Part shown: one piece after another, positions 3,330 to 24,563 of the stretch
Numbering within the stretch: position 1 is the first letter of the stretch
How the letters are laid out: each line of letters begins with the position of its first letter
Position numbers and translations under genes: made by a program
IMG/VR virus record: IMGVR_UViG_3300017707_001156
Span: 1 to 25,269 of that record
Source: a virus
Lineage: Duplodnaviria > Caudoviricetes
Direction: 5' to 3' (one strand)
Length of the DNA: 25,269 nt
Notes under the pieces: model-generated
Databases searched by the model: none
Told to the model about the DNA's origin: nothing
The model's input: only the letters and a program-made list of their open reading frames with translations

Positions 3330-4313
3330 TTAGGCAATCTGAGTGATCTTGCCGTGCGCACCCGGATGCTTCACGAGCAGCGTGAGGGCGGTATCAACAT
3401 AACCGCGCTCGCCACCACCGAAGTTGGGGAGGCGGGTAGAACCAAGCGGAATGTACTCGGCAACGCTGTAGTAGTCAGGGTTGAGCAGGTAGCCAGTGTC
3501 CTTGTTGGTTGTGTCAGGAGCGCAGTCAGGGTTCATGTTCACAACGGAAACAAGACCATGGTCGCTCTGATACATCTCAACCGACAGCTTGATTGTGCTG
3601 TTGCCCATGTCCGTGTTGACATTACGAACAGTGTAATCAGCCGAACCGGAGGTGCGGGCGAAGTCCGTAATCTTACGGCGCAGAGCAGTGTCGGCAACCA
3701 GTGTCAGGTTGTTGGTGCTGCCAGTGACGCGATAAATCGAGGTAATCAGGTCATTGAACACAGTCTCGGTAAACGCATTGGAGGCGTAAATCGAGCCAGA
3801 CGGAGTGCGGTAGGCGGCAGGAACATCGGTGCCGGGCGAAGTGTCAACCCACTTGCCGAGGCCACGAAGACCATACACCGTGCCAGCACCGTCTTCAACA
3901 GAGCGGTCATTGCTAGAGCAGAGGGTGGCCTCAATGTCGCGCTTAATCTCGCGCACAGCTTTGGCTTCAGCCTGAGCAATCTTGGCAGGGCCAACAGAGT
4001 CAGCAGCCTCTTGCAGGTCGGAAACCATAAAGTCGCGGCGGAACTTCTGGATGTAGTTACCAAGACGGGCACGACCACTGAACTTGTCAGTGAAAGTGAT
4101 AACGTCGGCACCCTCGGCAACACCAGCGGTACTGGGAGCAGCGAGAGAGTCAACAGTCCACTCTACGAAAGTGGCGGACGCCTTGGTTTTGGTCGCAGCG
4201 GAGAGAACAGGAGTCTCCTCGGGAGCGAGAATTGTGAGAACGTCGAGCAGTTGCTCGCGGTTGGAGACAGCAGCACCGGGATTGGTGGTGTCGTATGTGC
4301 CGGAAAAGGCCAT
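3330..4313 (-). CDS. Major capsid protein (HK97 fold, SU10/DUF5309-like)
   Basis: N-terminal NREQLLDVLTILAPEETP..EWTVDSL..EG motif, RLGNYIQKF, EIKRDIE and C-terminal HPGAHGKI resemble SU10-type capsid proteins; follows portal and scaffold. Confidence 0.9.
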   Translation of the reverse strand: MAFSGTYDTTNPGAAVSNREQLLDVLTILAPEETPVLSAATKTKASATFVEWTVDSLAAPSTAGVAEGADVITFTDKFSGRARLGNYIQKFRRDFMVSDLQEAADSVGPAKIAQAEAKAVREIKRDIEATLCSSNDRSVEDGAGTVYGLRGLGKWVDTSPGTDVPAAYRTPSGSIYASNAFTETVFNDLITSIYRVTGSTNNLTLVADTALRRKITDFARTSGSADYTVRNVNTDMGNSTIKLSVEMYQSDHGLVSVVNMNPDCAPDTTNKDTGYLLNPDYYSVAEYIPLGSTRLPNFGGGERGYVDTALTLLVKHPGAHGKITQIA

Positions 4314-4344
4314 GGTATTAGGTAGTTATAGGGTTAATCTGACG

Positions 4345-5382
4345 TTAAGAACGGACGGAACGCTGAATTGCTCGGAGAGCTGCAAAGTCACTAACTGAGC
4401 CTGACGAACTGAATCTCTTTGCTACTTCTAACACAGCTTTATTACTACGAGCTTCCGGTTTTTCAGATGCTCCATTGTAACTTGCAGGACTAGAAGGTGG
4501 GTTAATCTTAGGTTTGGCTTCCGTAAGAGGAATGGTTTTGCGACCATACATGGAATTGGCTGCGTGAGCCAAAATGTAAGGAAGCTGCGGAGCAATGTCG
4601 GGATCGGCCTCGATTAGCTTTGTGAGACGCTTATCAGCAAGCATTGCCTCATATTGCTTACGAGTGTCATTATCCTCGCCATTCATCCAATCCAACTCTT
4701 TGCGGGCATGTTCGTCGAAGGACTTTTTAAGCTGGGAGCGATGTTCGCGGGCTTGCAACTCTTGGAGTTGGGCGGGCAAAAACTTGTCCTTAGCTTTGCG
4801 GGCATTTTTAAGAGCGGCTTTCACGTCCGCCTTAGTCATTTCCTTTCCTTCAACGGTAACAACAATGTCGTCGTGCGCAAGGTGGTCAGCTTGGTCAAGT
4901 TTATCCTCTGCCCATTCGATAACATCATTTACCTCGCGGGCTTTCGCCTGTAAAGTTTCAATGGTGTCCAAATTGGCGTATGGATTCTTTTCAACCGACT
5001 TCACCTCAAGCGGGGACTCCTGACTGCGTTTCGCCAGTTCGGACTGGAGAGCGGCAATTTGCTCCTCTGCTTGCTTGCGTTTTGCTGTGAGTTCACCGAA
5101 GCGAGCTACGGCGCGAGAGCCTAGCTTGTCCGACAATTCACGCAATTCTGCATCCGACATTTCACCTAGATCAAACTTAGAAAGAACGTCTTTTTCCTTC
5201 GGCTGTTCTGGTTGCTCCTCTTGCTTTTCAGCTTTTGGTGCTTCCTCAGCTTTAGGCGATTCTTTGGGGACTACTTTCTTTTCCCCCAGCCGTCGAGCGG
5301 CTAACTCGGCAACTGTAATGTTCGACTTTTCCACTGTTTTGATTTCGGAGCCAGCGTTCTCCGTAGTAACTTCATTAGACAT
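4345..5382 (-). CDS. Capsid scaffolding protein
   Basis: 345 aa, highly charged coiled-coil with RFGELTAKRKQAEE motif and Pro-rich C-terminal linker; directly upstream of the capsid gene. Confidence 0.75.
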   Translation of the reverse strand: MSNEVTTENAGSEIKTVEKSNITVAELAARRLGEKKVVPKESPKAEEAPKAEKQEEQPEQPKEKDVLSKFDLGEMSDAELRELSDKLGSRAVARFGELTAKRKQAEEQIAALQSELAKRSQESPLEVKSVEKNPYANLDTIETLQAKAREVNDVIEWAEDKLDQADHLAHDDIVVTVEGKEMTKADVKAALKNARKAKDKFLPAQLQELQAREHRSQLKKSFDEHARKELDWMNGEDNDTRKQYEAMLADKRLTKLIEADPDIAPQLPYILAHAANSMYGRKTIPLTEAKPKINPPSSPASYNGASEKPEARSNKAVLEVAKRFSSSGSVSDFAALRAIQRSVRS

Positions 5383-11995: not shown

Positions 11996-12304
11996 TTATT
12001 TAAGTTCAACATCAACTGAATCTCGCTTCTTCAATTGGTTCAACTCGTCAGCAAGCTCAAGGATTGTTTTCTTATGTCCATCCAGATCTCGCTCCAGTGA
12101 GTAGATTGACGCATTGGCCATTTGTAGTGCCTTTGTCTCGCTATGCACGCTAGTCGCATCCATACGAGCTTGCAAGGAAGCATTGGCGTCACGCCAGCGT
12201 AAAATCTCCTTAGAGAGTGATTCAACCCTAGCAGTTAGCTTGGCATTGGAATCACCTAAATCCATGATTTGTTTAATAAGCAGCAGGCAGTCTTCGGCAT
12301 CCAT
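11996..12304 (-). CDS. Coiled-coil hypothetical protein, first gene of left operon
   Basis: 102 aa with heptad pattern; promoter-like sequence immediately upstream. Confidence 0.7.
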   Translation of the reverse strand: MDAEDCLLLIKQIMDLGDSNAKLTARVESLSKEILRWRDANASLQARMDATSVHSETKALQMANASIYSLERDLDGHKKTILELADELNQLKKRDSVDVELK

Positions 12305-12310
12305 AATTCA

Positions 12311-12339
12311 ATCTTTAGTCGCCAACCTAAGATAGTCAA
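12311..12339 (-). promoter_or_regulatory. Putative sigma70-like promoter, possibly leaderless
   Basis: TTGACT-17 nt-AAAGAT, with ATG 6 nt downstream and an AT-rich upstream tract. Confidence 0.45.
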
Positions 12340-12344
12340 GATTT

Positions 12345-12570
12345 ATTTTCACTTATTTCACTCCTACCCATACAGACACAACTATCCTTAAGCCTTTATG
12401 TCCGTTGTTTGTCTCCGTTAGCAGTCTTTATGCCTTCCGTAAACCAACCAACTTCCATTCGCCAACTCCGTCAAAAAACAGACATAAAAACAATTCCACT
12501 GGCTTACCGCTTCCGCTCGCCAGACCGTATTATAATCCAATCTCACCTACACAGTCACCGCTTCGCGTTG
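12345..12570 (-). ncRNA. Candidate structured GGA-rich small RNA or long leader
   Basis: No sizeable ORF; own promoter; 17 bp helix 12395-12411/12472-12488 plus flanking helices; 10 GGA motifs. Confidence 0.5.
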
Positions 12571-12575
12571 GTTCG

Positions 12576-12603
12576 ATTGTATTACGCAAATTCAAAAAGT
12601 CAA
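12576..12603 (-). promoter_or_regulatory. Sigma70-like promoter
   Basis: TTGACT-16 nt-TACAAT on the minus strand. Confidence 0.7.
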
Positions 12604-12689
12604 GACAATTCTTCAAAAGATTATCAGAAAATACCACTCAACTAACCTCACATCATACACTTAAAAATTTTTATTTTATTTTCAGAAAT

Positions 12690-12736
12690 AGACTTCTAGC
12701 CAACTAAAGACTTCTAGTTAAACAAAAGACTTCTAC
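12690..12736 (+). repeat. Three direct repeats AGACTTCTA
   Basis: Copies start at 12690, 12708 and 12727, next to an A/T tract at 12661-12683. Confidence 0.85.
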
Positions 12737-12760
12737 AAATACCCAACCACAAGCAATTTA

Positions 12761-13127
12761 ACCTATCTCATCCTTAAAGCCTATCTACATCACCAGAACC
12801 TACAGCCTATCTACCCCCCATAACACTGTCAAAAACCTCTTAAATCCAAAGCAATCACCCATAGAACCAACCGCAAATAGGACGGCCTAAAGGATATTTT
12901 TTTTAACAGCTACTTAACCTATCGCAATTCTTCTGCCCACCCAACCTACCAACCCCCTCCCCCCATGCCGGAACAATAGAGGGAGGGAATGCTACAGCCT
13001 ATCCAATAGAATAGCATAGGCGCAGCTCGATGCTCTCGCGTGCGTGTGGGGAATATTAAGGGGTGAATCTATCTTACAGCCTATCTACAGCCTATCTCAT
13101 GCCTATCTACAGCCATATCTACAGGCC
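12761..13127 (+). repeat. TACAGCCTATC / CCTATC repeat family (dispersed copies plus 11 bp tandem array)
   Basis: Dispersed copies near 12761, 12779, 12801, 12916 and 12993; tandem units at 13075, 13086, 13097, 13108 and a partial at 13120. Confidence 0.9.
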
Positions 13128-13258
13128 AATCACACACACAAAGGAACGAGCTGGTAATAATAGCTTAATTGGAATGATTCTAAATAAGGAAATGAAGACA
13201 AAAGAAACATTTGAGCTTGCTTTGGTGTGATTGGTGTGATTGCTTGGTGTTCTCACCT

Positions 13259-13507
13259 ATGAAATACGAAATTACGCCAAAGGTTACACACATTGACGGC
13301 GCTACGCTTGCGAACGTTCCGTTTCGGCTTAGCTCGCACCATGACGCGAAGGGGCAAGTTGAATTGATCTCGCTTACTTGGCTACCATTCGGCGGAGTTG
13401 GCTCAATCCACACCACGTTTCGAGTTAAACACATTGGGGACATTTACTATCGGCTTACTAGGGGTATTGAGATTCCCAGGAATTGGTTTTCGCACAACGA
13501 ATCGTAA
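13259..13507 (+). CDS. Hypothetical early protein (MKYEITPK...)
   Basis: ATG at 13259 within the listed ORF; followed immediately by an intrinsic terminator. Confidence 0.6.
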   Translation: MKYEITPKVTHIDGATLANVPFRLSSHHDAKGQVELISLTWLPFGGVGSIHTTFRVKHIGDIYYRLTRGIEIPRNWFSHNES

Positions 13508-13511
13508 CCAC

Positions 13512-13540
13512 AAAGCCTCCCAGAAATGGGAGGCTTTTTT
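13512..13540 (+). terminator. Rho-independent terminator
   Basis: AAAGCCTCCC-AGAAAT-GGGAGGCTTTTTT. Confidence 0.9.
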
Positions 13541-13635
13541 ATGCCTTCCCATGTCGTTTGCTTGCGATTTAACGCCATTTGAAAGCGTAGGTGGTGCGAA
13601 GCTATGGGAGGAGAAACAGGGTTATTTTAAAGAAA

Positions 13636-13677
13636 GTTAAAAAAATAGCTTGCAAGTGAAAAACCATTTGAGACTGT
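13636..13677 (+). promoter_or_regulatory. Putative early promoter
   Basis: A-tract UP element, TTGCAA at 13650, 16 nt spacer, weak -10 GACTGT. Confidence 0.4.
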
Positions 13678-13715
13678 GAAGGAGTAGCAACGAAACAAAC
13701 CAAATATATAAAGAT

Positions 13716-13964
13716 ATGAAAAACACCTACGCCAACGGCACCATAGCTAATAGCCAAGCGTCAACATGGGAATACACGGCTGAAAACGCCGCCAAAGCCG
13801 AAGCGGAATGGTGGGAGTACCGCAACGGCAGTTTGCGACTGTGGGGCGACCTTGACCGCGCTAATGATAGCGCCAGCAGATACGTTTTTGAGAAAACAGG
13901 ACGGCGCAGAAAGTCGTGGGTTTCTATTCTGCCTAACGCACGCCAAACAACCAACCAGGCCTGA
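13716..13964 (+). CDS. Hypothetical early protein
   Basis: 82 aa; ATG preceded by an A-rich leader. Confidence 0.7.
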   Translation: MKNTYANGTIANSQASTWEYTAENAAKAEAEWWEYRNGSLRLWGDLDRANDSASRYVFEKTGRRRKSWVSILPNARQTTNQA

Positions 13965-14010
13965 CAGCCAACGGCCTACACTTTCAGCCAACGAAACACA
14001 CACAGACAAA

Positions 14011-14988
14011 ATGAAAACCAATAACCTGACTTATACGTTCACCCATAACACCCCACGCGAGCGGGTCACTGTCAAAGCGTCACTAAATGACGAATGTAGA
14101 AATGGGCATTCGCATTTTTCCCTCACTTGCTCCGCAGAGGAACTATCTCGTGGGCGTTGGGTGGACTCTTTCGGCGGTTGCGCCCATCAAGAAATTCTCA
14201 AGCGGTTCCCTGACGTTCCCGAGCTTCGCCTTTTGGCCTCCATGCATTTGTCAGAATCCGACGGCGTTCCAATGCACGCTTTCAGCAATGCATTTTATTG
14301 GTTTTGCGGTTTGTTCGCTGATGGACTAGGCAACCAATACCACGGAGGGAGCGGGCGGGACGGCAAGAGCCGCGAGAAATGCCGCGAGATATTGACAGGC
14401 CATTTGCGTGCAACCCCTGCGCAGATTGACGCCTTAATAGCTGCGCAGCCGCGCAACTATGCAGAGATGAAATTTCAGATTGAGAAGCTGGGATTCATTG
14501 AACAATGGAAAGCAGAAGCTGACACGCTGCGTAAATGGCTGGAAGAGAAAACCGACAAGGAATACTCTTACACGGGGGAGCGTTTGAGCTATAAGCCAAC
14601 AACACCAGAGGAGGCCAAGGCAATTGAGGACTTGTTCGCTAGTGGGTATTACCTACCCGAAAACGTAGCGAAACGGGACGCGGAGAAGAAGGCCGCGCAA
14701 CGCCGCAAGCTAACCGCCGAGGCAATGAAAGAAGCCGATGTAAAGATGGAGCATATAAAAAAGGAGCTAGCCCTCCGTTTGTGCGTTATTGATTGCGATA
14801 ATAAGGCCGCAAAAAACACGATCCTTTACAATCATATGAACACCGTGGCGGCGAATTGGTCTGAAAGTGAGCCACTATGGGCGGAGGCGGATTTCAACGC
14901 ATTCGCCGCCGAGTGCCAATTACGCCCAGAGCTAGAGAGCGTAAAGTTTGAGTTTCAAGCCAAGCCGAAAACCTACGGAAAGAAATGA
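14011..14988 (+). CDS. Phage early protein with Cys/His motifs (unknown function)
   Basis: Start reassigned to ATG 14011 after an ACACACAGACAAA leader; motifs DECRNGHSHFS, GGCAHQEI and HLSESDGVPMH. Confidence 0.8.
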   Translation: MKTNNLTYTFTHNTPRERVTVKASLNDECRNGHSHFSLTCSAEELSRGRWVDSFGGCAHQEILKRFPDVPELRLLASMHLSESDGVPMHAFSNAFYWFCGLFADGLGNQYHGGSGRDGKSREKCREILTGHLRATPAQIDALIAAQPRNYAEMKFQIEKLGFIEQWKAEADTLRKWLEEKTDKEYSYTGERLSYKPTTPEEAKAIEDLFASGYYLPENVAKRDAEKKAAQRRKLTAEAMKEADVKMEHIKKELALRLCVIDCDNKAAKNTILYNHMNTVAANWSESEPLWAEADFNAFAAECQLRPELESVKFEFQAKPKTYGKK

Positions 14989-15074
14989 TAACCGCTTTTA
15001 CCCTGCTTTGTGTCCTAATAATGAGCCTGCTTACATTTTCGGGCCTATTAAAAAACCACGAATCATGCAAATGA
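14985..15074 (+). CDS. 29 aa single-helix membrane peptide (MITAFTLLCVLIMSLLTFSGLLKNHESCK)
   Basis: Below the ORF-track cutoff; ATGA overlap at both ends; hydrophobic core. Confidence 0.65.
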   Translation: MITAFTLLCVLIMSLLTFSGLLKNHESCK

Positions 15075-15301
15075 AAACAATACCGATAATCGGAAGCCAT
15101 TGGATTAGCGAAAAGCGTGAACAGTTTGATTTCTGCCTTTGCGAGCGCACCGAAAAGGGGCTTTTAACCGTCGCCATTGTCAGTATAGGGACAGGCAATT
15201 TTTCGGCTTGGTCAATATCTCGTTATTCTTTAAGAATGCCTGCAATTGTTCGCTTGGCAAAGATATATAAAAACCGCAGTATTCCGCAACAAATTAAGTG
15301 A
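15071..15301 (+). CDS. Hypothetical protein (MKTIPIIGSHW...)
   Basis: ATGA-coupled start; flanked by 16 bp direct repeats. Confidence 0.6.
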   Translation: MKTIPIIGSHWISEKREQFDFCLCERTEKGLLTVAIVSIGTGNFSAWSISRYSLRMPAIVRLAKIYKNRSIPQQIK

Positions 15302-15325
15302 TACAAAAAAGCCCCTACTCGAATC

Positions 15326-15517
15326 ATGCAAATGACATTAAAACAAAGGCTGTCTTTTCATGTAAATCGCCTAATAAATGACGGCGGCGAGGTAGTAACT
15401 GAAATTCCCCCCAAAATTAAAGCATGGCGACAGCCAACAAACGCCGAAATAAGTTTCGGTTACGGCGCGATCATAGTGCTTGCAATGCGCAAGCGCTTGC
15501 GCATGGTGGAGGTGTAA
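15326..15517 (+). CDS. Hypothetical protein, possibly 3'-truncated
   Basis: 63 aa (start could be 15332); the last codons run through a palindromic promoter-like sequence. Confidence 0.5.
   Translation: MQMTLKQRLSFHVNRLINDGGEVVTEIPPKIKAWRQPTNAEISFGYGAIIVLAMRKRLRMVEV
15480..15507 (+). promoter_or_regulatory. Putative promoter with perfect 20 bp palindromic operator
   Basis: TTGCAA-16 nt-CATGGT enclosing ATGCGCAAGCGCTTGCGCAT (15485-15504). Confidence 0.6.
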
Positions 15518-15530
15518 CGAACAACATACC

Positions 15531-15704
15531 ATGAAAAACATCACCTCATTCAACTGCGTCGCCTACGTCGGCCACGGCCTCGAAAAAACCGTCGTAACCG
15601 TGGACGCCAAAAACACCCGCGAGGCTTGGAGCAAAGCAGACGCAGAACTCCGCAAGACTCACCGCATCGTTCAGATGCTCGACATCAAGGAGGTCGGAGC
15701 GTGA
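15531..15704 (+). CDS. Hypothetical protein (MKNITSFNC...)
   Basis: ATG after an AACAACATACC leader; TGA overlaps the next GTG. Confidence 0.7.
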   Translation: MKNITSFNCVAYVGHGLEKTVVTVDAKNTREAWSKADAELRKTHRIVQMLDIKEVGA

Positions 15705-15898
15705 AGGCCGGAGATAAGTGCATGTATAAACTGCCCACCCGTAAAAACGACGGGTGGCGCGAAGGCAGGGTGCAGGAAAAGATCGGTGATCTTTATCGTG
15801 TCACGCGACCGGACGAAGAATATGGCGGCATCCTCTTTTATCGTGAGGAACTTCTTTCGTGGCCGGAGTGGAAGAATCTGGTAAACGCCAACAAATGA
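15701..15898 (+). CDS. Small SH3/KOW-like protein (MKAGDKC...)
   Basis: GTG start with AAGGAGGT upstream; GDK..WREGRV..YRV pattern. Confidence 0.65.
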   Translation: MKAGDKCMYKLPTRKNDGWREGRVQEKIGDLYRVTRPDEEYGGILFYREELLSWPEWKNLVNANK

Positions 15899-16068
15899 AA
15901 ACCGCAACATACGAACAAATCCAAGTCGCACGCGACATCGCAAACGACTACGCCACAGGCGAACAAGACCGAAAGGCTTTGCTTGCCGTGGCGGAAGCCG
16001 CTGAAAACCTTACTAACCTTTTAACGGGGCTTGCCATGCTGGGCAAAGGCACTCCCGCCGCAGACTAA
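15895..16068 (+). CDS. Hypothetical helical protein (MKTATYEQ...)
   Basis: ATGA overlap with the previous gene. Confidence 0.65.
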   Translation: MKTATYEQIQVARDIANDYATGEQDRKALLAVAEAAENLTNLLTGLAMLGKGTPAAD

Positions 16069-16081
16069 ACGGAAGATTACC

Positions 16082-16285
16082 ATGAACCATCGTAAGATTA
16101 GCGCCAAAGGCGGGAAGGCTGGGCGCGGCGCGGCAAAAGCCCGCACTAGCGAACAGGCACGCGCCGCCGCGCAAGCGGGATGGGCTAAACGGCGTAAGGA
16201 AATGTTTGAACGATCCGACTGGTTAAAGCCTGATGGAAGTTTCTATAAATGGCGCAAGTTTGACGGTTTGCGTTATAACCGATAA
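16082..16285 (+). CDS. Small basic KGG-motif protein, probable nucleic-acid binder
   Basis: SAKGGKAGRGAAKARTSEQARAAAQAGWAKRR; followed by a terminator. Confidence 0.7.
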   Translation: MNHRKISAKGGKAGRGAAKARTSEQARAAAQAGWAKRRKEMFERSDWLKPDGSFYKWRKFDGLRYNR

Positions 16286-16288
16286 AAC

Positions 16289-16316
16289 AAAGCCCGCCAA
16301 TTACGGCGGGCTTTTT
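16289..16316. terminator. Intrinsic terminator between convergent operons (likely bidirectional)
   Basis: AAAGCCCGCC-AATTAC-GGCGGGCTTTTT. Confidence 0.9.
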
Positions 16317-16329
16317 CGTGTCCTTATTC

Positions 16330-17652
16330 CTACGCTTTGAACGTAGCGGTCGGCCTGTGAAAAGGAACGCCATCACAAATTGCCATACCTTCAGCGCGGC
16401 CTTTTAATTGGATTAACTGGGTGAAAATTGTTTCTTGTGACTGATCTCCGAAGGTTTGCTTGATTCCGTCGTGTTCACTTTTCCAGTTTATGGCCACCAC
16501 TCGGCTTGCTTCGCACTCAATCGAACCTGATTCACGCAAATCAGACAGCATTGGGGCGCGGTTCTCCTTTTCCGTAAGGCGTGACAATTGAGCTAATGCG
16601 ATGACTGGGCAAACATCATTTGCAAGGTCTTTGAGAGTTCGACAAAATCGGCCCAGTGCGACGTCTCGCGTTTCTCCCTTTTGCTGTTCTGGATCATATA
16701 TTTGAAGGTAGTCAATGAAGATTGCGACAGGCTTTTTCTTTAAGCATTGAGCTTTTACCCGTGCAACAATTTGCGTTAAGGTGCGATCACGGTCAAACAC
16801 TTTAAGAGACGTATTGGCTTTAACCTCCTTTAAGGACTCAATCAGTTCGCCAACGTCTTTCTTGTGCAAGCGTCCATTGCGAGCCTCGCGCCATGAGTGA
16901 CCACAAAGCGATTGAGCGAAAAGAGGTGGAAGTTCACTGACTGGCATTTCACGACTAAAAAGCATTACTTCTCCGTATATTTTCGACCAATGCCAAGCGA
17001 GCTGCCTCGCAACAGATGATTTACCCTGAGATGGACGGGCTGCAATGATTACGAGTTCCCCATTCTGGATGGGCCCTAGCCACCGATTAGCCTCTTTCCA
17101 AGGCCAAGGCATACCGTTGTCGCCTTCACGAATTTCACCGCTTAAAACACGTTTAAGGCGCGATTCAATGTCGTCACAAGAGTCGGCAAGGGTTAAAGTC
17201 TTTTCAAGGCCGTCTCTAATTTTAAGACATTCCTCGATTGACGTAGTTAGTTGCGCCATGTCGCCCGTGTAATCACGGGCAGCTTCAATGAAGCTGTGAG
17301 ACCTCTTAATGATCTCACGCAGCATTAAAAGCTCCTGAAGCTTGTCAATAGCATGGCGTGTTCCTGATGTGGTCGGAACTTTTTGTGTTACGTTAAGCAG
17401 GTGCTCAATTCCGCCAACCTGTGCCAGTTTGCCTTTCTCTGTTAAGGCGGCAACAATTGCGTCGTGTTCTAGTGGTGTGCCACGCTTAAAAGCCCACAGA
17501 AAGGTTTTCCATAAGAGCTTGTTCCGTTCGTCAAAAAATGAGTCTTCACAAACTTTCTTGTCGAGGGCAATTTGCATTGTCTCGATTCCGTCTAACAAAA
17601 TCGAGGCTATAACTGTCTCCTCCGCTTGTGATGAATTTGGTAATGGCTTCAT
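16330..17652 (-). CDS. dnaB: DnaB-like replicative helicase
   Basis: N-terminal LPNSSQAEETVIASIL domain, Walker A AARPSQGKS, Walker B IFIDYLQ, LAQLSR and LSDLRESGSIE. Confidence 0.95.
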   Translation of the reverse strand: MKPLPNSSQAEETVIASILLDGIETMQIALDKKVCEDSFFDERNKLLWKTFLWAFKRGTPLEHDAIVAALTEKGKLAQVGGIEHLLNVTQKVPTTSGTRHAIDKLQELLMLREIIKRSHSFIEAARDYTGDMAQLTTSIEECLKIRDGLEKTLTLADSCDDIESRLKRVLSGEIREGDNGMPWPWKEANRWLGPIQNGELVIIAARPSQGKSSVARQLAWHWSKIYGEVMLFSREMPVSELPPLFAQSLCGHSWREARNGRLHKKDVGELIESLKEVKANTSLKVFDRDRTLTQIVARVKAQCLKKKPVAIFIDYLQIYDPEQQKGETRDVALGRFCRTLKDLANDVCPVIALAQLSRLTEKENRAPMLSDLRESGSIECEASRVVAINWKSEHDGIKQTFGDQSQETIFTQLIQLKGRAEGMAICDGVPFHRPTATFKA

Positions 17653-17702
17653 TTATTCGCTGTTGTGTATGTTTTCTATGTTTCCTAGCAGTACTTAAGG
17701 AA

Positions 17703-17909
17703 TCAACCCATGATTGACCCGTTATGGTACTGAATTGGCTTATGTTTTTCAATGTCAAGAAAAGCGTAGCAAATTTGGTCTTCATCCCAGAGCGATTGGG
17801 CGTGTGGAGTTTGGTCGCTGCCGCTTGTGCGGAATATCCAGCGGCAGCATTGATAGCGGGTGTCACATGATGCGTTGTGGCATCGGCATATATCGTTTGG
17901 TAATGTCAT
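17703..17909 (-). CDS. Small Cys-rich phage protein
   Basis: DICRC..C..CCRW...C pattern, likely metal binding. Confidence 0.7.
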   Translation of the reverse strand: MTLPNDICRCHNASCDTRYQCCRWIFRTSGSDQTPHAQSLWDEDQICYAFLDIEKHKPIQYHNGSIMG

Positions 17910-17994
17910 GTTTTTTTACAATCGTTATGGGGTCTTGAACCCATAAACAAAAAGTCCACTTGTTTACGGGTTTGCAGGATTTATGGATGCCTAA

Positions 17995-18082
17995 GTTGAA
18001 CCGTGAATTGCTTACCTTTTTCCAGTTTAGACGGGGTGTTATCAGCCTATCTGGAAGAAGTTGAGGCTAGTTCACGTTGGGC
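17995..18082 (+). repeat. Long imperfect hairpin closing on AAC/GTT (attC-like or target site)
   Basis: Pairings AAC/GTT, GTGAATT/AGTTCAC, GCTT/AGGC and CTTTTTCCAG/CTGGAAGAAG; ends in GTTGGGC. Confidence 0.55.
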
Positions 18083-18587
18083 AAGGCGGAATCACGGGCG
18101 GCGGTGCTTGTCTTGGAGCGCATGGTATTTGTTTACCATATTTAGATACTCCTCATTCTTTTTACGAAGGGCATATTCAAGCCGCTCAATCTCTCGCTTG
18201 GCCACATCATTAGACTTCTTGGCCACCTCGCGCCATGCCCAATCAAGTCCATTACGAGCTGTAGGAGATGCGATATATGACGATCCTGCGCTACACACGT
18301 TCTCCGTCCATCTGTCTATTATTTGAGCGGTTACATGCTTCAGTATATCATCATCACATGACAAGCTCTCAACCATTTTTATCTTTGACTCAGCATCAAC
18401 TGACTGAAGCATATCGTGCAAATCTAACACCAACTCTCCGGCATTGTATTTTATTGTCATAAGTAAATTCGTTAAAGTTTATATCGGAACCAAAACCACA
18501 TACAGCCCAACCAGTCGCTACAGCGAATAGCCCGCAACGTCGCTCATGGTTCGGCTAGTTTCAGTGGGCTATCGCTGAGCTTGGGCG
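18077..18587 (+). mobile_element. Integron-type gene cassette with inverted ORF
   Basis: Starts at G^TTGGGC (18076/77), complementary to its own R'' GCCCAAC; contains one ORF; ends at the attC crossover G^TT (18587/88). Confidence 0.75.
18092..18460 (-). CDS. Hypothetical protein (cassette-borne, C-terminal coiled coil)
   Basis: 122 aa; fits neatly between the two GTTGGGC core sites. Confidence 0.75.
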   Translation of the reverse strand: MTIKYNAGELVLDLHDMLQSVDAESKIKMVESLSCDDDILKHVTAQIIDRWTENVCSAGSSYIASPTARNGLDWAWREVAKKSNDVAKREIERLEYALRKKNEEYLNMVNKYHALQDKHRRP

Positions 18588-18593
18588 TTGGGC
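18505..18593 (+). mobile_element. Integron attC recombination site (89 bp)
   Basis: R'' GCCCAAC, 5 nt spacer, L'' GCTACAGC with extrahelical A, second extrahelical A, 9 bp stem, L' GCTGAGC, 6 nt spacer, R' GTTGGGC. Confidence 0.88.
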
Positions 18594-18808
18594 AGAAACG
18601 GAGCAGCCATCAGAAACTCGCGACGGTCTTCTGAGATTGGCTGTCCCATTCGTGCACTGTATTTCATTTCTGCTATGCACGCAGCCAGTGCCGTTTTCAT
18701 ACCTATGTTCTCGCGCTCAAGCTCGCGGGCGAAGTTCACGCCTACGCATCGTCCCAGTCCAGTGATTGCCTCGCGTTCTTCTGCATCAGTTCTCGGTGTG
18801 TCGCTCAT
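18569..18808 (-). CDS. Phage hypothetical protein (MSDTPRTDA...FARELERE type)
   Basis: Recognisable N-terminal motif of a common small phage protein type; C-terminus encoded by the attC site. Confidence 0.8.
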   Translation of the reverse strand: MSDTPRTDAEEREAITGLGRCVGVNFARELERENIGMKTALAACIAEMKYSARMGQPISEDRREFLMAAPFLPNAQAQR

Positions 18809-19077
18809 TTCTTTCCTTTCGCCTTAATCCCAATCGCGGCGAGGGCTGCGTGGGCTATTTTCTCTGCCGTGAAATGCTCTGCCATATCTTCCCACTCTTT
18901 CTCAATCTGCCCGACCATGCGTTCGACGCTTTCGGCGTCGGCGGGCAGGAGGAAGACGGAATTGACCGCATACGGGGAGAATCCGGCGTAATAAACGGCT
19001 GACTCTTTCTTTGGGTACAGCACGCAGGTATTTCTCCCGCGCCAGTATTTCCGCGCCTTCACTTTTTCTATTTTCAT
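18805..19077 (-). CDS. Hypothetical protein (MKIEKVKARK...)
   Basis: Start reassigned to ATG 19077 after an AAACAACACAAACAAAT leader; ATGA overlap downstream. Confidence 0.7.
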   Translation of the reverse strand: MKIEKVKARKYWRGRNTCVLYPKKESAVYYAGFSPYAVNSVFLLPADAESVERMVGQIEKEWEDMAEHFTAEKIAHAALAAIGIKAKGKK

Positions 19078-19100
19078 ATTTGTTTGTGTTGTTTGTTTAG

Positions 19101-19352
19101 CTAACGACGCCATTCAAGTGCCCTCTTACGTCCTAACGCAAGAAAAATCTGCGTCTGATGCGAACAAATCGTTCTTTCTTTACTAGGCCAAGCTGCAAAT
19201 GGTTGATTAGCCCTACGTTTAGGAGCGCAGCGAAATATGTCATCCCTGCAAGTGCAGGTGGACGTTAAGGCGTTAACCGTGTATTCCCCCTCACCTGATG
19301 CACTCTTAACGTAGAAAATCCAAGGTGCTTCTCCTTGTCTTGAAGTGTTCAT
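19101..19352 (-). CDS. SWIM-type zinc finger protein
   Basis: EYTV..CTC...CSH (CxC-xn-CxH). Confidence 0.8.
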   Translation of the reverse strand: MNTSRQGEAPWIFYVKSASGEGEYTVNALTSTCTCRDDIFRCAPKRRANQPFAAWPSKERTICSHQTQIFLALGRKRALEWRR

Positions 19353-19503
19353 TGATTAGTTTTTTAAGTTCATCCTCATTCGTCCATTTCCCGTTTTCAT
19401 CCTGCCAGAAGTGCGGATTTTCGTTGGGTGTAGAGACGATTCCACAATAGGAGAAACCCAGTTCTGATGCGGCGTAACGCTCAATCTCGTTAAGTGTGCT
19501 CAT
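19306..19503 (-). CDS. Hypothetical protein
   Basis: 65 aa; ATGA overlap with the thyX stop. Confidence 0.65.
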   Translation of the reverse strand: MSTLNEIERYAASELGFSYCGIVSTPNENPHFWQDENGKWTNEDELKKLINEHFKTRRSTLDFLR

Positions 19504-20120
19504 AGCTTAAAAGCCTCAAGCGTTGCTTTGAACGGGTTTCCTTCGATGCTTTTCACTAGGTCAAGCATATTCGCAGCTATGTCCCTAATTTCCTTTTGTG
19601 CCGTAGGCTTATTGCGAAGACCAAGGAAATGCACGAAGGAGCGGAAGTTGAAACTAACGTCCAAGGTCAGCTGGTTAGCGTAAGGCAAGAAGAATCGCGC
19701 ACTCTCTTTAGCCCTAGCGCGGCCTAAGATTGGAGTTAAGCGTGCAAGCGTGGCGTGGTACAGCTCATTAGACGCCAAGCAATGCGTTTTAAGGGCATTT
19801 TGAATGTCGATAGGCCAGTCGGATGGGATTAGTGCTGTTGGCTCCTTAAACTCCTTGTAGCGGGCCGACTCGCCATTGCAACTTACGCCCACCCTGTGTT
19901 TGAGCAAATGTGTGTGCGCACTTTGATCGCATCGCACAAGAAAATGAAGCATTGACTTCTCGAAAGGCGTATGGTGTCCGGCCTCTGCTAGCTGGTTCAA
20001 GAGTGCTGGGATGCGTTCACGCTTCTTAGCGTCCAGCTCTCGGCTAGTGCTAGTCCATGCGCTGAGCGCGTGAATCTCATCGTTGCCGTAATGTCCAATC
20101 AATTCTACTGTGTTATTCAT
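19500..20120 (-). CDS. thyX: Flavin-dependent thymidylate synthase
   Basis: GHHTPFE, KHRVGVSCNGESARY (ThyX motif variant), KESARFFLP, NFRSFVHFLGLR and AQKEIR; start reassigned to ATG 20120. Confidence 0.93.
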   Translation of the reverse strand: MNNTVELIGHYGNDEIHALSAWTSTSRELDAKKRERIPALLNQLAEAGHHTPFEKSMLHFLVRCDQSAHTHLLKHRVGVSCNGESARYKEFKEPTALIPSDWPIDIQNALKTHCLASNELYHATLARLTPILGRARAKESARFFLPYANQLTLDVSFNFRSFVHFLGLRNKPTAQKEIRDIAANMLDLVKSIEGNPFKATLEAFKL

Positions 20121-20166
20121 TTCTTTGGGTTTGTGCTTGCTTTTGGTGTTTTCTCCTCTGTCAACC

Positions 20167-20194
20167 GTAACAAAAACTATGCCTTTTTTGTTAC
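20167..20194. promoter_or_regulatory. 28 bp inverted repeat upstream of thyX (operator candidate)
   Basis: GTAACAAAAA-CTATGCCT-TTTTTGTTAC, perfect 10 bp arms. Confidence 0.6.
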
Positions 20195-20212
20195 AAAAGT
20201 AAACAGTCAAGT

Positions 20213-20395
20213 CTAAAAAGACCTAGTTTTTTTAATTAGTGCTTTCCATGCTGCTTTAGACTCAGGCGATCCATAGCCATATTTGCGCTTGACTTCACTG
20301 AAAGCGTCAAAAGCACGCTTGCTTTCTCTTTCGAGAAACAACTCATTTTTAGTCTTGCTTTTCGTTACTTCACTTATGCGTCTTACGTTAATCAT
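20213..20395 (-). CDS. Small basic hypothetical protein
   Basis: 60 aa ORF in operon orientation. Confidence 0.6.
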   Translation of the reverse strand: MINVRRISEVTKSKTKNELFLERESKRAFDAFSEVKRKYGYGSPESKAAWKALIKKTRSF

Positions 20396-22099: not shown

Positions 22100-22906
22100 A
22101 TGGGACACTATTACAATTTAGACGGGGACGCTTGCCACACGCAGCCCACCAAGGCCGGATCTAAAAACAAGACACGCCCAACTACGGTGGCCGACGCACG
22201 CAAGCTCAAGTTGCTGCCTAGCGTCACGACCGTGTTTGACGTTATCAGCAAGCCATTCTTGACCGAGTGGCAGATCAAGGAAGCACTCAAGGTAGCTTAC
22301 GGTTGCCCTGCTGGGGTTTTCGAGAACGAAGACGAGTGGATTTCATACGTCCGCTCAAAAGCAAGCGAACAGGTGGGCATGGCAGCCGACCTTGGCACAA
22401 ATGTCCACAAGGCTATAGAAATGGCCTTAAACACGCAGGAATGGGCACAGGAACTCAAGTCTTACGTCCTGCCAACACTGGATATTGTTCGTTCAATGAA
22501 CATTAACGAGCAAATCAGCGAATCAGTCACAGTTAATTCAGAGATTGGCTATGCTGGATGCGTTGACCTTTCTGGATGGATGAAAGACGCAGAGAGCATG
22601 GTGGAAATTCCAACAGTTCCTGTTATTGTTGACTTCAAGACAAAGAAAACTAAGGCGGGCGAAAAGATTGACGTTAGCGAAACCTATCCTTGGCAGCTCG
22701 CAGCCTACCACGTTTCCAAGTTTGGTAAAGGCCAGCGTGAACTTCATCCATTGGCTAAAGCGTGCAACATTTACATATCTAGCACAGAACCGGGGCGAGT
22801 TGAAGTAAAGTGGTATGACAAGGACGAATTAGATGATTCATTTGAGTGCTTTAAGGCTTGCCATAAATTGTGGTGCCTAAGAAACAAATATATCTTAAAC
22901 AAATGA
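22100..22906 (+). CDS. PD-(D/E)XK exonuclease (RecB/Cas4-like phage recombination nuclease)
   Basis: LPSVTTV, GTNVHKAIE, GYAGCVDL, IVDFKT and QLAAY motifs. Confidence 0.9.
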   Translation: MGHYYNLDGDACHTQPTKAGSKNKTRPTTVADARKLKLLPSVTTVFDVISKPFLTEWQIKEALKVAYGCPAGVFENEDEWISYVRSKASEQVGMAADLGTNVHKAIEMALNTQEWAQELKSYVLPTLDIVRSMNINEQISESVTVNSEIGYAGCVDLSGWMKDAESMVEIPTVPVIVDFKTKKTKAGEKIDVSETYPWQLAAYHVSKFGKGQRELHPLAKACNIYISSTEPGRVEVKWYDKDELDDSFECFKACHKLWCLRNKYILNK

Positions 22907-23733
22907 ACGAAACACACATAATTAGCCTTGGTGCTGGCGTCCAATCTAGCTGTATGGCATTGATGGCAGCTAAAGGAGAAATAGGGCCAATGCCAGTAGC
23001 TGCAATTTTTGCAGATACACAAGCAGAGCCACGAAGCGTATATGACTGGCTAGATTGGCTTGAGACGAAATTGCCATTTCCTGTGTATAGAGTTACACAA
23101 GGATCATTGACTGAAATGAGCCTATCAACTAAAATAAATAAAAAAACCGGAAGTGCATATCTTCGGAATATGATTCCTGCCTATACATTAAATCCAGATG
23201 GAAGTAAAGGACTTCTAGGTAGAGACTGCACTAGCGATTTTAAGTTGAAACCGATATTTAGAAAGCAGAAAGAAATCGCTAAAGTGGTCAGAGGACAAAA
23301 GCACGCATCTGTAGTATCTTGGATCGGAATTAGTTTAGATGAGTACTCTAGGATGAAGCCGTCTCAAGTAAAATGGTCTAAATCTCGTTGGCCACTAATT
23401 GAGAAAGAAATGACTAGACATGATTGCTTGCGTTGGATGGAAAAAAACGGATACCCAAAACCACCAAGAAGCGCGTGTATTTACTGCCCTTTTCATTCAA
23501 ATCATGAGTGGCGCAGATTAAAGAAAGATGAGCCAGAAGAATTTAAAAAAGCAGTAGAGTTTGAGAAAAACCTGCAAGTGCTTCATTTAAACCATACTGG
23601 AAAAGGAAAAATTAAATCAATACCATATCTACATAACTCCATGGTTCCAATTAGCGACATTGATTTTGATGAAGATTTAACTCAAGGAAATTTTGCATTT
23701 ATCAATGAATGCGAGGGTATGTGTGGAGTTTGA
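22903..23733 (+). CDS. PAPS-reductase-like adenine nucleotide alpha-hydrolase (PP-loop) protein
   Basis: ISLGAGVQS PP-loop variant, IFADTQAE, WIGISLDE, PPRSACIYCPFHS and C-terminal ECEGMCGV; ATG 22903 overlaps the upstream TGA. Confidence 0.85.
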   Translation: MNETHIISLGAGVQSSCMALMAAKGEIGPMPVAAIFADTQAEPRSVYDWLDWLETKLPFPVYRVTQGSLTEMSLSTKINKKTGSAYLRNMIPAYTLNPDGSKGLLGRDCTSDFKLKPIFRKQKEIAKVVRGQKHASVVSWIGISLDEYSRMKPSQVKWSKSRWPLIEKEMTRHDCLRWMEKNGYPKPPRSACIYCPFHSNHEWRRLKKDEPEEFKKAVEFEKNLQVLHLNHTGKGKIKSIPYLHNSMVPISDIDFDEDLTQGNFAFINECEGMCGV

Positions 23734-23779: not shown

Positions 23780-23998
23780 ATGAATACACCACTTAACACA
23801 CATGAGGAAGAAGCTCTGCATGAAGTTCTTTCCGACATTACCGACAGTTCTAGCGAGCGTGAGCAAAACCTTGCCATTGATCGCTATTTGAAGCTAAACA
23901 TGGCTATCGCCATGCGCAACAACACACTTTCTGGCGAAATGTTCAACGCAGTGGTTGACGCCATTAAACCAAAACAAAAAACACATGAAACACGATAA
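23780..23998 (+). CDS. Hypothetical protein
   Basis: 72 aa; overlaps the erf start. Confidence 0.7.
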   Translation: MNTPLNTHEEEALHEVLSDITDSSSEREQNLAIDRYLKLNMAIAMRNNTLSGEMFNAVVDAIKPKQKTHETR

Positions 23999-24563
23999 TC
24001 TAAACGAAATCGCGCCCGCTTTGGTAGCTGCACAAGCTGCTATCACCTACGCAGCCAAGGATAGCACGAACCCGCACTTTAAGAATCGTTACGCCGACCT
24101 GCAAAGCGTCATCGAAGCTGTTAAAGGGCCGTTAAACGCTAACGGTATCGCCTTTATCCAAACTCCTAGCGAGGCACAGGCTGGCTTTCTTAACTTGACT
24201 ACCACTCTCATTCACAAGAGCGGTCAATTTATCAGCGATACAGCCACCATTCCTTTGCCGAAAAACGATCCGCAAGGTTATGGTTCTGCCCTTACCTACG
24301 GTCGTCGTTATGGACTCGCAGCCATTTGCGGGCTTTTCCAAGCTGATGACGACGGTGAAGCATCAGCACTACACTCACAGCCTGTTGTCGCATTGGCCAA
24401 CAAAGCCGACATTGAGACAATCAACACCTTTGCAACTGGTGCCGACACTGGGCCAGTAGTTGCAAAAGCATTTACCCATTACAAGGTAAAGACTGCTAAG
24501 GAGCTAACCGCTGAACAGGCGGCAGTTATCATCAAGCGTTGCATTGAGACCGTTCAGAAATAA
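23985..24563 (+). CDS. erf: ERF-family single-strand annealing protein
   Basis: KDSTNPHFKNRYADL and PQGYGSALTYGRRYGLAAICGL..DDDG motifs. Confidence 0.92.
   Translation: MKHDNLNEIAPALVAAQAAITYAAKDSTNPHFKNRYADLQSVIEAVKGPLNANGIAFIQTPSEAQAGFLNLTTTLIHKSGQFISDTATIPLPKNDPQGYGSALTYGRRYGLAAICGLFQADDDGEASALHSQPVVALANKADIETINTFATGADTGPVVAKAFTHYKVKTAKELTAEQAAVIIKRCIETVQK

Follow-up and report, generated by a model that had tools for sequence, protein, structure and literature searches.

A candidate integron-type attC site and a putative single-gene cassette with an inverted ORF among the replication genes of an uncultured freshwater phage

Introduction

How does a small phage gene come to stand between replication genes with a hairpin of the integron type on one side of it and a bare copy of the same core site on the other, and could it have arrived there as an integron cassette? 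This question is raised by a locus in the row of minus-strand genes that spans positions from about 21170 down to 16330 of a viral contig and that includes the genes for ThyX and a DnaB-like helicase. The window, by which we mean the whole stretch of DNA analysed, is a complete IMG/VR viral record of 25,269 bases with a completeness estimate of 69%. The contig originates from an uncultured freshwater phage. Its principal genes and the features of the locus are collected in Table 1. Searches for relatives and for known RNA elements gave nothing, as blastn of 16300-20300 against phage records returned no match, a search of IMG/VR with the DnaB peptide found no relative, and Rfam and tRNA scans of the window gave no match.

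Integron cassettes have been described outside integrons. The integrase IntI inserts cassettes at minimal GWT sites (attC × attG recombination), which leads to lone cassettes, and cassettes at such sites can be expressed and excised, as shown by Loot et al. (10.1101/2022.09.11.507474). The attC sites of virulent phages have likewise been shown to be substrates of IntI1 (Qi et al. 2023, PMC9892861). Here we examine whether the hairpin is of the attC type, whether a cassette-like unit can be delimited around the gene, how related sequences vary at its predicted boundaries, and which explanations suit these observations best.

A Hairpin with attC-Type Geometry

The rules set out for attC sites by Nivina et al. 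(2016, PMC5027507) concern the folded bottom strand, which is the one recombined: each arm contains an unpaired spacer of 5-6 nt, the arm facing the AAC triplet carries the extrahelical bases, these occupy positions 16 (usually G) and 23 or 24 (a conserved T), and a stem of 6 bp separates the first from the last of them. In the hairpin of the window, the core sites fit RYYYAAC/GTTRRRY with a complementarity of 7/7, both computed folds leave the spacers of 5 and 6 nt unpaired, and the bulges correspond to positions 16 and 23 of the bottom strand and are separated by a stem of 6 bp, in agreement with the attC rule. The bulged base at position 23 is T, as in the rule, and that at position 16 is T where G is usual; we regard the latter as a deviation rather than a failure, because the published rule says "usually". 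The minus strand is considered the bottom strand because its bulges sit opposite the AAC arm. Note also that the DNA fold energy of the hairpin is only modestly better than that of shuffled sequences (z = -2.16 and -1.74).

Table 1. Coordinates of the genes and sequence features considered in the text; strand refers to the record as given.
Feature	Position	Strand	Remarks
SU10-type major capsid protein	3330-4313	minus	
DNA methylase			encoded on the contig
DnaB-like helicase	16330-17652	minus	
ORF adjoining left flank	17703-17909	minus	
Left flank	17910-18075		non-coding, between the putative cassette and the minus-strand ORF; conserved in relatives as far as the left core site
Left core site GTTGGGC	18076-18082	plus	predicted crossover G18076/T18077; outside any attC/attI-like structure
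Putative complete cassette	18077-18587	plus	511 nt: TTGGGCA, antisense ORF, attC, G; basis: sequence and variation boundaries
ORF122 (cargo)	18092-18460	minus	122 aa; phage family
attC-type hairpin	18505-18593	plus (top strand)	89 nt
R'' GCCCAAC	18505-18511		part of hairpin
Unpaired spacer CAGTC	18512-18516		5 nt
L'' GCT	18517-18519		3 bp
Bulged A	18520		bottom-strand T16
Stem CAGCGA	18521-18526		6 bp
Bulged A	18527		bottom-strand T23
Stem TAGCCC	18528-18533		
Variable loop	18534-18565		32 nt
3' arm GGGCTA/TCGCTG/AGC	18566-18580		
Unpaired spacer TTGGGC	18581-18586		6 nt
R' GTTGGGC	18587-18593		part of hairpin
ORF79 (upstream phage ORF)	18569-18808	minus	79 aa
ThyX	19500-20210	minus	
ERF recombinase	23955-24563	plus	

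The fit was quantified with a geometry matcher, scored to 17, which was written from the rules in PMC5027507 after the hairpin had been seen. The hairpin scores 17/17 and is the sole match of at least 13 in the window, and the best score in 100 shuffles was 15, reached in one of them. Nine attC sites of known class 1 cassettes from plasmid integrons served as positive controls. At a threshold of 15 the matcher recovers six of these (aadA1, aac(6')-IIa, blaVIM-1, aac(6')-Ib4, aph(3')-XV and catB2) and misses three (blaIMP-1, dfrA14 and a second aadA1); the six recovered sites are called on the gene strand with spacers of 5/6 nt (once 5/5), and their opposite strand gives no match of at least 13.

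Because the matcher postdated the sight of the hairpin, covariance models were built from real sites alone, R1 from 13 class 1 attC sites and R2 from 14 sites realigned to R1. With filters off, R1 finds 18505-18593 on the plus strand over its full length at 32.2 bits, the sole significant match in the window (next-best match, 10.9 bits), and R2 reports the same hairpin, again at full length and on the plus strand only, at 32.6 bits; the corresponding E-values of 3.8e-6 and 1.5e-5 are rough, as they come from home-made models trained on 13-14 class 1 sites. The R1 score stands at the low end of those of the real training sites (31.2-60.3 bits), and with the default filters of Infernal R1 does not report the hairpin, which appears only when they are switched off. 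The hairpin at 18505-18593 has integron attC-type geometry and matches models of real attC sites: on the presence of an attC, which the original prediction had claimed, geometry, matcher and both covariance models agree.

The Repeated Core Site and the Putative Cassette

The eight-base word GTTGGGCA is found at 18076-18083 and again at 18587-18594, exactly where it had been noted, and the coordinates of the resulting unit of 511 nt were reproduced. A third copy lies at 146. These three matches, counted on both strands, compare with 0.95 expected, and three or more were reached in 6 of 100 shuffles; from the expectation of 0.95, the chance that the same strand carries an exact copy in the 1.5 kb or so upstream works out at roughly 0.02-0.03. 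In the copies at 18076 and 18587, the 7-nt core GTTGGGC can pair over its whole length with the R'' box GCCCAAC (18505-18511), its exact reverse complement, and a strict scan of the window finds a single complementary RYYYAAC...GTTRRRY pair. The left core site had been described as the exact complement of R'', which is true of the seven-base core but not of the eighth base of GTTGGGCA; the latter is unpaired with the R'' side because position 18504 is A.

Two G|TT points, 18076|18077 and 18587|18588, bound a stretch that carries the attC-type hairpin at its 3' end and that may represent a complete cassette. The distance between the left G|TT and the stop codon of ORF122 is 15 nt, and 44 nt separate the start of the frame from R''. 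The side of the bulges, the geometry matcher and the two covariance models all place the top strand of the hairpin on the plus strand, and the ORF is therefore inverted relative to attC; thus the 122-aa frame does lie inside the unit and opposite to the site, as had been proposed. In the common cassette form the ORF is carried by the attC top strand and ends at or in the attC, whereas ORF122 is on the bottom strand. In bacteria, reversed cassettes exist as a minority.

The original prediction had also spoken of cassettes in the plural, and this has to be corrected, since the matcher and both covariance models find one attC in the window and no second. To the left of 18076, the covariance models match no attC or attI, and the fold of 17985-18095 is not significant (z = -1.19). 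Neither an integron integrase (TIGR02249) nor a tyrosine recombinase (PF00589) was found in the contig; as only 69% of the genome is estimated to be present, this does not prove the absence of an integrase from the phage. The locus differs from a complete integron, which comprises intI with an adjacent attI and a promoter, and with its one site it differs from a CALIN, which has at least two clustered attC without an integrase. What is found here is the arrangement termed SALIN, a single attC with a coding sequence and without another att site or an integrase nearby.

The Cargo Gene and Its Homologues

ORF122 matches phrog_32847, a family of unknown function, with an E-value of 3.8e-15, and has 97 homologues of about 120-125 aa. 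No Pfam family scores above its cut-off. The AlphaFold2 model (mean pLDDT 78.8) predicts a mostly helical protein with a long C-terminal helix, for which comparison with the PDB gave no match at E <= 0.001 (best E 4.8). The phrog match and the presence of homologues in nine IMG/VR contigs uphold the earlier suggestion that the cargo is a phage-type gene.

Seventy-four other loci with homologues were compared, namely the nine IMG/VR contigs, one MAG contig and 64 metagenome contigs, in which the homologues are tightly packed among other small genes. A blastn-short search with the window hairpin found it in none of the 74. Near the homologues the matcher called such hairpins at one locus only (L006, scores 16 and 15), in addition to one weak match at another (L005), and three shuffles of all loci produced zero matches of at least 15. 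Whether homologues are flanked by attC elsewhere had been named as a check of the prediction, and its outcome is divided: at L006, on the viral contig G001, attC-like hairpins stand on both sides of the gene, but 73 of the 74 loci are without such a hairpin.

Variation of the Hairpin and at the Predicted Crossover Points

The variation of the locus was followed in Logan contigs of public freshwater runs, one of which (X1) is a possible source sample. In X1 the hairpin is confined to this phage. It is also present in contigs of X3, X5, X6 and X7, which belong to four studies other than the possible source, and there the depth over the hairpin jumps at 18504 and drops at about 18592-18599. These copies agree in their arms (18504-18535 and 18560-18591) and differ, by substitutions and indels, in the loop between them (18536-18559); in X5, X6 and X7 all listed changes are within 18533-18561, with none elsewhere in the arms. 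The contigs that bear the hairpin have at least six distinct left flanks, left of 18499-18504, and at least four distinct right flanks, right of 18593-18598. Conservation across many contexts rules out a chance hairpin. Conserved arms with a variable loop fit an attC family but equally any hairpin repeat, and it is therefore the geometry and model tests that carry weight. IMG/VR contains no exact match to a 28-nt piece of the 3' arm; with the whole hairpin, plasmid records gave short chance matches only (six records, E >= 3) and phage records none.

Related contigs depart from the window close to both predicted crossovers. On the left, a 666-nt contig (record 3 of X2) aligns with its positions 37-209 to 17912-18084 and is unlike the window thereafter, and an 812-nt contig (record 14 of X3) aligns with positions 612-812 to 17882-18083, beyond which it too is unlike the window; in these two contigs, from two studies, the likeness stops directly after the left GTTGGGCA, at 18083/18084. 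On the right, a minor contig of X1 with a depth of 16.2 is common to the window at 18587-18616 and differs left of 18587. Its depth and that of the main contig (226.2) add up when set against the continuing sequence (245.9), which places a branch at 18586|18587. The upstream gene ORF79 crosses the crossover triplet in frame, with codon AAC (18589-18587) encoding Asn, and its last five codons and stop are supplied by the 3' arm of the attC. Three of eight ORF79 homologues have a ...PFL(P/A)N end, and their tails diverge right after Asn: PFLPN-AQAQR (P0098, as in the window), PFLAN-SRDEPRGANAKNL (P0099) and PFLAN-VPDEPRLRPKND (P0100).

Relatives thus change sequence at both predicted crossover points, 18083/18084 and 18586|18587. 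The boundaries in relatives had been named beforehand as a check; the likeness of related contigs ends at the two places just given, but the precise empty site that would complete the picture (a joint 18076->18588) is found in none of the contigs examined, nor did these show a circle junction; contigs cannot show rare excised forms.

Two further observations were set aside. The only joint across the region, 18028->18586, seen in one contig of X5 at a depth of 3.8 and with 30 nt on its shorter side, was too thin to rely on and lies 48 nt off the left point, and it was rejected as an empty site. Zero depth at the cargo bins 18176-18443 in X3, X5 and X6, the flanks being covered, was not counted as absence of the cargo, as an uncovered stretch is no evidence.

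The same data have to be confronted with a simpler account, in which only the hairpin of about 90 nt is repeated and mobile, either as an empty attC or as a small selfish hairpin, ORF122 was swapped by ordinary mosaic recombination between phages, and the left GTTGGGCA is a chance copy. It would explain why the repeat in other runs is bounded exactly at 18504 and 18593 with flanks that vary on both sides, why homologues of ORF122 occur in phage gene rows lacking the hairpin (the 73 of 74 loci), and why no precise empty site turned up among the contigs, and the copy of GTTGGGCA at 146 illustrates that the word also arises by chance. However, an exact 8-mer on the same strand at cassette distance has the low chance of about 0.02-0.03 given above, the likeness of the two related contigs from two studies stops at 18083/18084, and on the right the break is at 18586|18587 rather than at the left edge of the hairpin. 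We consider it unlikely that the hairpin alone is the mobile unit.

A Family of attC-Like Hairpins in a Second Phage Contig

G001, which carries locus L006, is a viral contig of 166 kb on which the matcher calls seven attC-like sites and a pattern search adds an eighth. The eight sites have one orientation, form three clusters and follow a common consensus, and the ORF122 homologue lies between two of the hairpins on the strand opposite to them. With the attC models, one of the eight is found at E < 0.01 (145087-145172; 19.5 and 25 bits); the family of G001 is therefore a candidate, attC-like by geometry. G001 has neither IntI nor another tyrosine recombinase, and its ORFs on either strand at 143-151 kb have no match in Pfam or PHROGs.

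A gene antisense to its site, both in the window and at the ORF122 locus of G001, together with eight same-family hairpins in one orientation in a contig devoid of IntI, just one of which satisfies the attC models at E < 0.01, might point to an integron-like system run by the phages themselves, employing an enzyme other than IntI and a "hairpin-first" logic in which the site precedes the gene on the sense strand. Such a system is nevertheless quite improbable in our view: the models of IntI1 substrates score the window site on a par with weak real sites, it carries both bulges used by IntI, and the window and G001 are both without any tyrosine recombinase.

Least of all would we expect the hairpin to regulate the phage transcript, as a terminator, attenuator or processing site, and to have no role in recombination, for although it sits in a gap of 108 nt between two genes of the same strand and attC sites are said to be weak terminators (PMC9892861), no intrinsic terminator (a G+C-rich stem followed by a T run) was called at 18505-18593 on either strand, promoter-like sites were not above chance (4 found versus 2.0 +/- 1.5 expected), the element is present as a single copy in the window, and the RYYYAAC/GTTRRRY ends, the 5/6-nt spacers and the bulges at 16 and 23 are unnecessary for a regulatory stem.

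A Model for the Origin of the Locus

In our assessment, 18505-18593 is probably an integron-type attC and 18077-18587 a single cassette (SALIN), which the integron integrase of a host would have inserted into the thyX-dnaB row. Enzyme, insertion, excision and expression are all parts of the scheme that we infer, which would run as follows. When the minus (bottom) strand becomes single-stranded, the attC would fold, and an IntI-type tyrosine recombinase of the host, not encoded on the contig, would bind the folded site. The bottom strand would be cut between A18588 and C18587 and then exchanged with a G|TT partner. With 18076|18077 as the partner, a circle of 511 nt would be released; the circle would be taken up by a G|TT elsewhere, be it in an integron or in the genome of another phage.

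The junction itself holds a hint as to the insertion partner. The bases that follow the right G|TT are TTGGGCA, identical to the first bases of the cassette, and they pair in full with R''. A plain attG insertion would take the bases after the right G|TT from the target, and the TTGGGCA repeat is thus unexplained by insertion at a GWT site. The sequence of the junction suggests that an R' box of the hairpin's own family served as the partner, and earlier cassettes may therefore have occupied the locus.

ORF122, being antisense to attC, runs in the direction of the phage genes on either side, whose transcript would include it. That the inversion puts the ORF on the strand of thyX and dnaB had been foreseen, and all three genes are indeed on the minus strand; judged by strand, ORF122 may be read together with both.

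A more far-reaching proposal is offered tentatively, as a possibility to which we give less than even chances. Freshwater phages may trade small genes as backwards, attC-bounded cassettes, in which the hairpin comes before the gene on the sense strand and operon transcription is unbroken. The upstream gene may be built to read through the crossover triplet, so that each arriving hairpin provides its last codons and stop, and the locus between ORF79 and dnaB could be a docking point that holds different cassettes across the population.

The locus deserves attention because, within the replication genes of an uncultured freshwater phage, a site of the integron recombination type stands together with a phage-family cargo, and because natural populations differ at both predicted crossover points. 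Should the cassette reading hold, integron recombination helps to build phage mosaic genomes besides bacterial resistance arrays, and phages can carry cassettes from host to host. The backwards orientation, in addition, suggests a route by which a cassette may enter an operon with its expression kept.

Comparison with Known Systems

Repeated intergenic hairpins that flank small, variably present genes are known from T4-type phages as PeSL cassettes, which depend on homologous recombination between many copies per genome and carry an early promoter. The window is unlike these in having one copy, no promoter signal above chance and attC geometry.

The attC of aadA1 (R100, L077:13475-13534) shares with the window site the 7-nt cores, the spacers of 5/6 nt and two bulges 6 bp apart, and the matcher gives it 16/17 compared with 17/17 for the window site. 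Class 1 attC sites have xxxTAAC/GTTAxxx cores, whereas the window site has GCCCAAC/GTTGGGC, and its first bottom-strand bulge is T and not G. It also differs from them in its length of 89 nt with a 32-nt loop, and neither plasmid nor phage records contain a similar sequence.

The SALINs, as presented by Loot et al. (10.1101/2022.09.11.507474), resemble the locus in that there is one attC and one ORF, integrase and attI are absent nearby, and the left bound is a bare G|TT. They differ in that they belong to bacterial genomes and the present unit to a phage, in that the ORF is antisense here, and in that TTGGGCA is repeated after the right crossover, which insertion at GWT sites as described in that account does not predict.

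The integrons and CALINs of phages (Qi et al. 2023, PMC9892861) are alike in that attC occur without an integrase in virulent or uncharacterised phages, and divergent site directions are remarked upon in that study. Beyond this remark, our literature searches found no report of lone or backwards phage cassettes. The screen of Qi et al. (PMC9892861), as described there, needed at least two attC, so that lone cassettes went unreported, and it covered cultured or complete phage genomes; the window stands apart from that set as an uncultured freshwater contig with a cargo gene of a phage family. Phage-borne attC clusters and lone bacterial cassettes are already in print, and the window is a further example of these and not a new kind of element.

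Alternative ORF79 Tails at the Predicted Crossover Point

The 79-aa phage ORF79 (18569–18808, minus strand) is read across the predicted crossover triplet, where the codon AAC specifies Asn. Leftwards of window position 18587, the ORF79 tails of relatives (a minor contig of freshwater run X1 and the homologous proteins P0099 and P0100) differ directly after this crossover Asn. Residues 1–2 after the Asn, which in attC geometry would be the unpaired spacer, differ among these alternative tails, and residues 3–6, which correspond to the L' box and stem, read (S/D)-E-P-R in all three. This pattern, taken from sequence comparison, suggests that a second hairpin family may be docked at the same point as the attC of the window (18587).

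In the same gene row as the cargo ORF, contigs of two other freshwater runs (two from X3, one from X5) skip 159 nt at window 19339–19499 and carry eight other letters instead. The skip falls within a 65-aa ORF (19306–19503), which is, as judged from these alignments, a second small gene of the row replaced in relatives, without any attC.

A Hairpin Family in Viral Contig G001

The IMG/VR contig G001 (166,137 bases; loci L082–L090), which encodes a homologue of the cargo ORF, carries eight hairpins of about 86–127 nt with attC-like geometry and three bulges, all in the same orientation and grouped as three clusters (see table). The covariance models of class 1 attC sites accept one of the eight, at 19.5 and 25 bits. 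Some copies may lie inside coding sequence, because a 348-codon ORF (143793–144839, plus strand) spans two of them. Neither IntI nor a tyrosine recombinase was found in this contig. In a pattern search of IMG/VR, the sole other record to match the family was L094 (10,281 bases), with a single further copy.

Hairpins and other features of the contigs compared
Contig	Feature	Position	Strand	Remark
G001	hairpin	89749–89844
G001	hairpin	92031–92157
G001	hairpin	143846–143943
G001	hairpin	144479–144574
G001	hairpin	145087–145172		passes attC models
G001	hairpin	147400–147487
G001	hairpin	149410–149504
G001	hairpin	150471–150566
L094	G001-type hairpin	2501–2588	+
Window	inverted repeat	12395–12488		28-nt arms
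Window	gene	13852–14988	+	phrog_17696, unknown function
Window	PAPS-reductase-like gene	22870–23733	+	phrog_424, E 2.9e-50

Other Gene Blocks and a Control Integron

Long ORFs are sparse in window 12300–16330, which separates two minus-strand gene blocks and has the phrog_17696 gene as its sole clear gene. In the rightward gene block, the PAPS-reductase-like gene adjoins an exonuclease-like gene and an ERF recombinase.

The class 1 integron of plasmid pIMP26 (L098) was one of the controls. Its blaIMP-26 cassette is followed immediately by the reverse transcriptase gene (3669–5018) of a group II intron; attC sites are known targets of introns of this kind.
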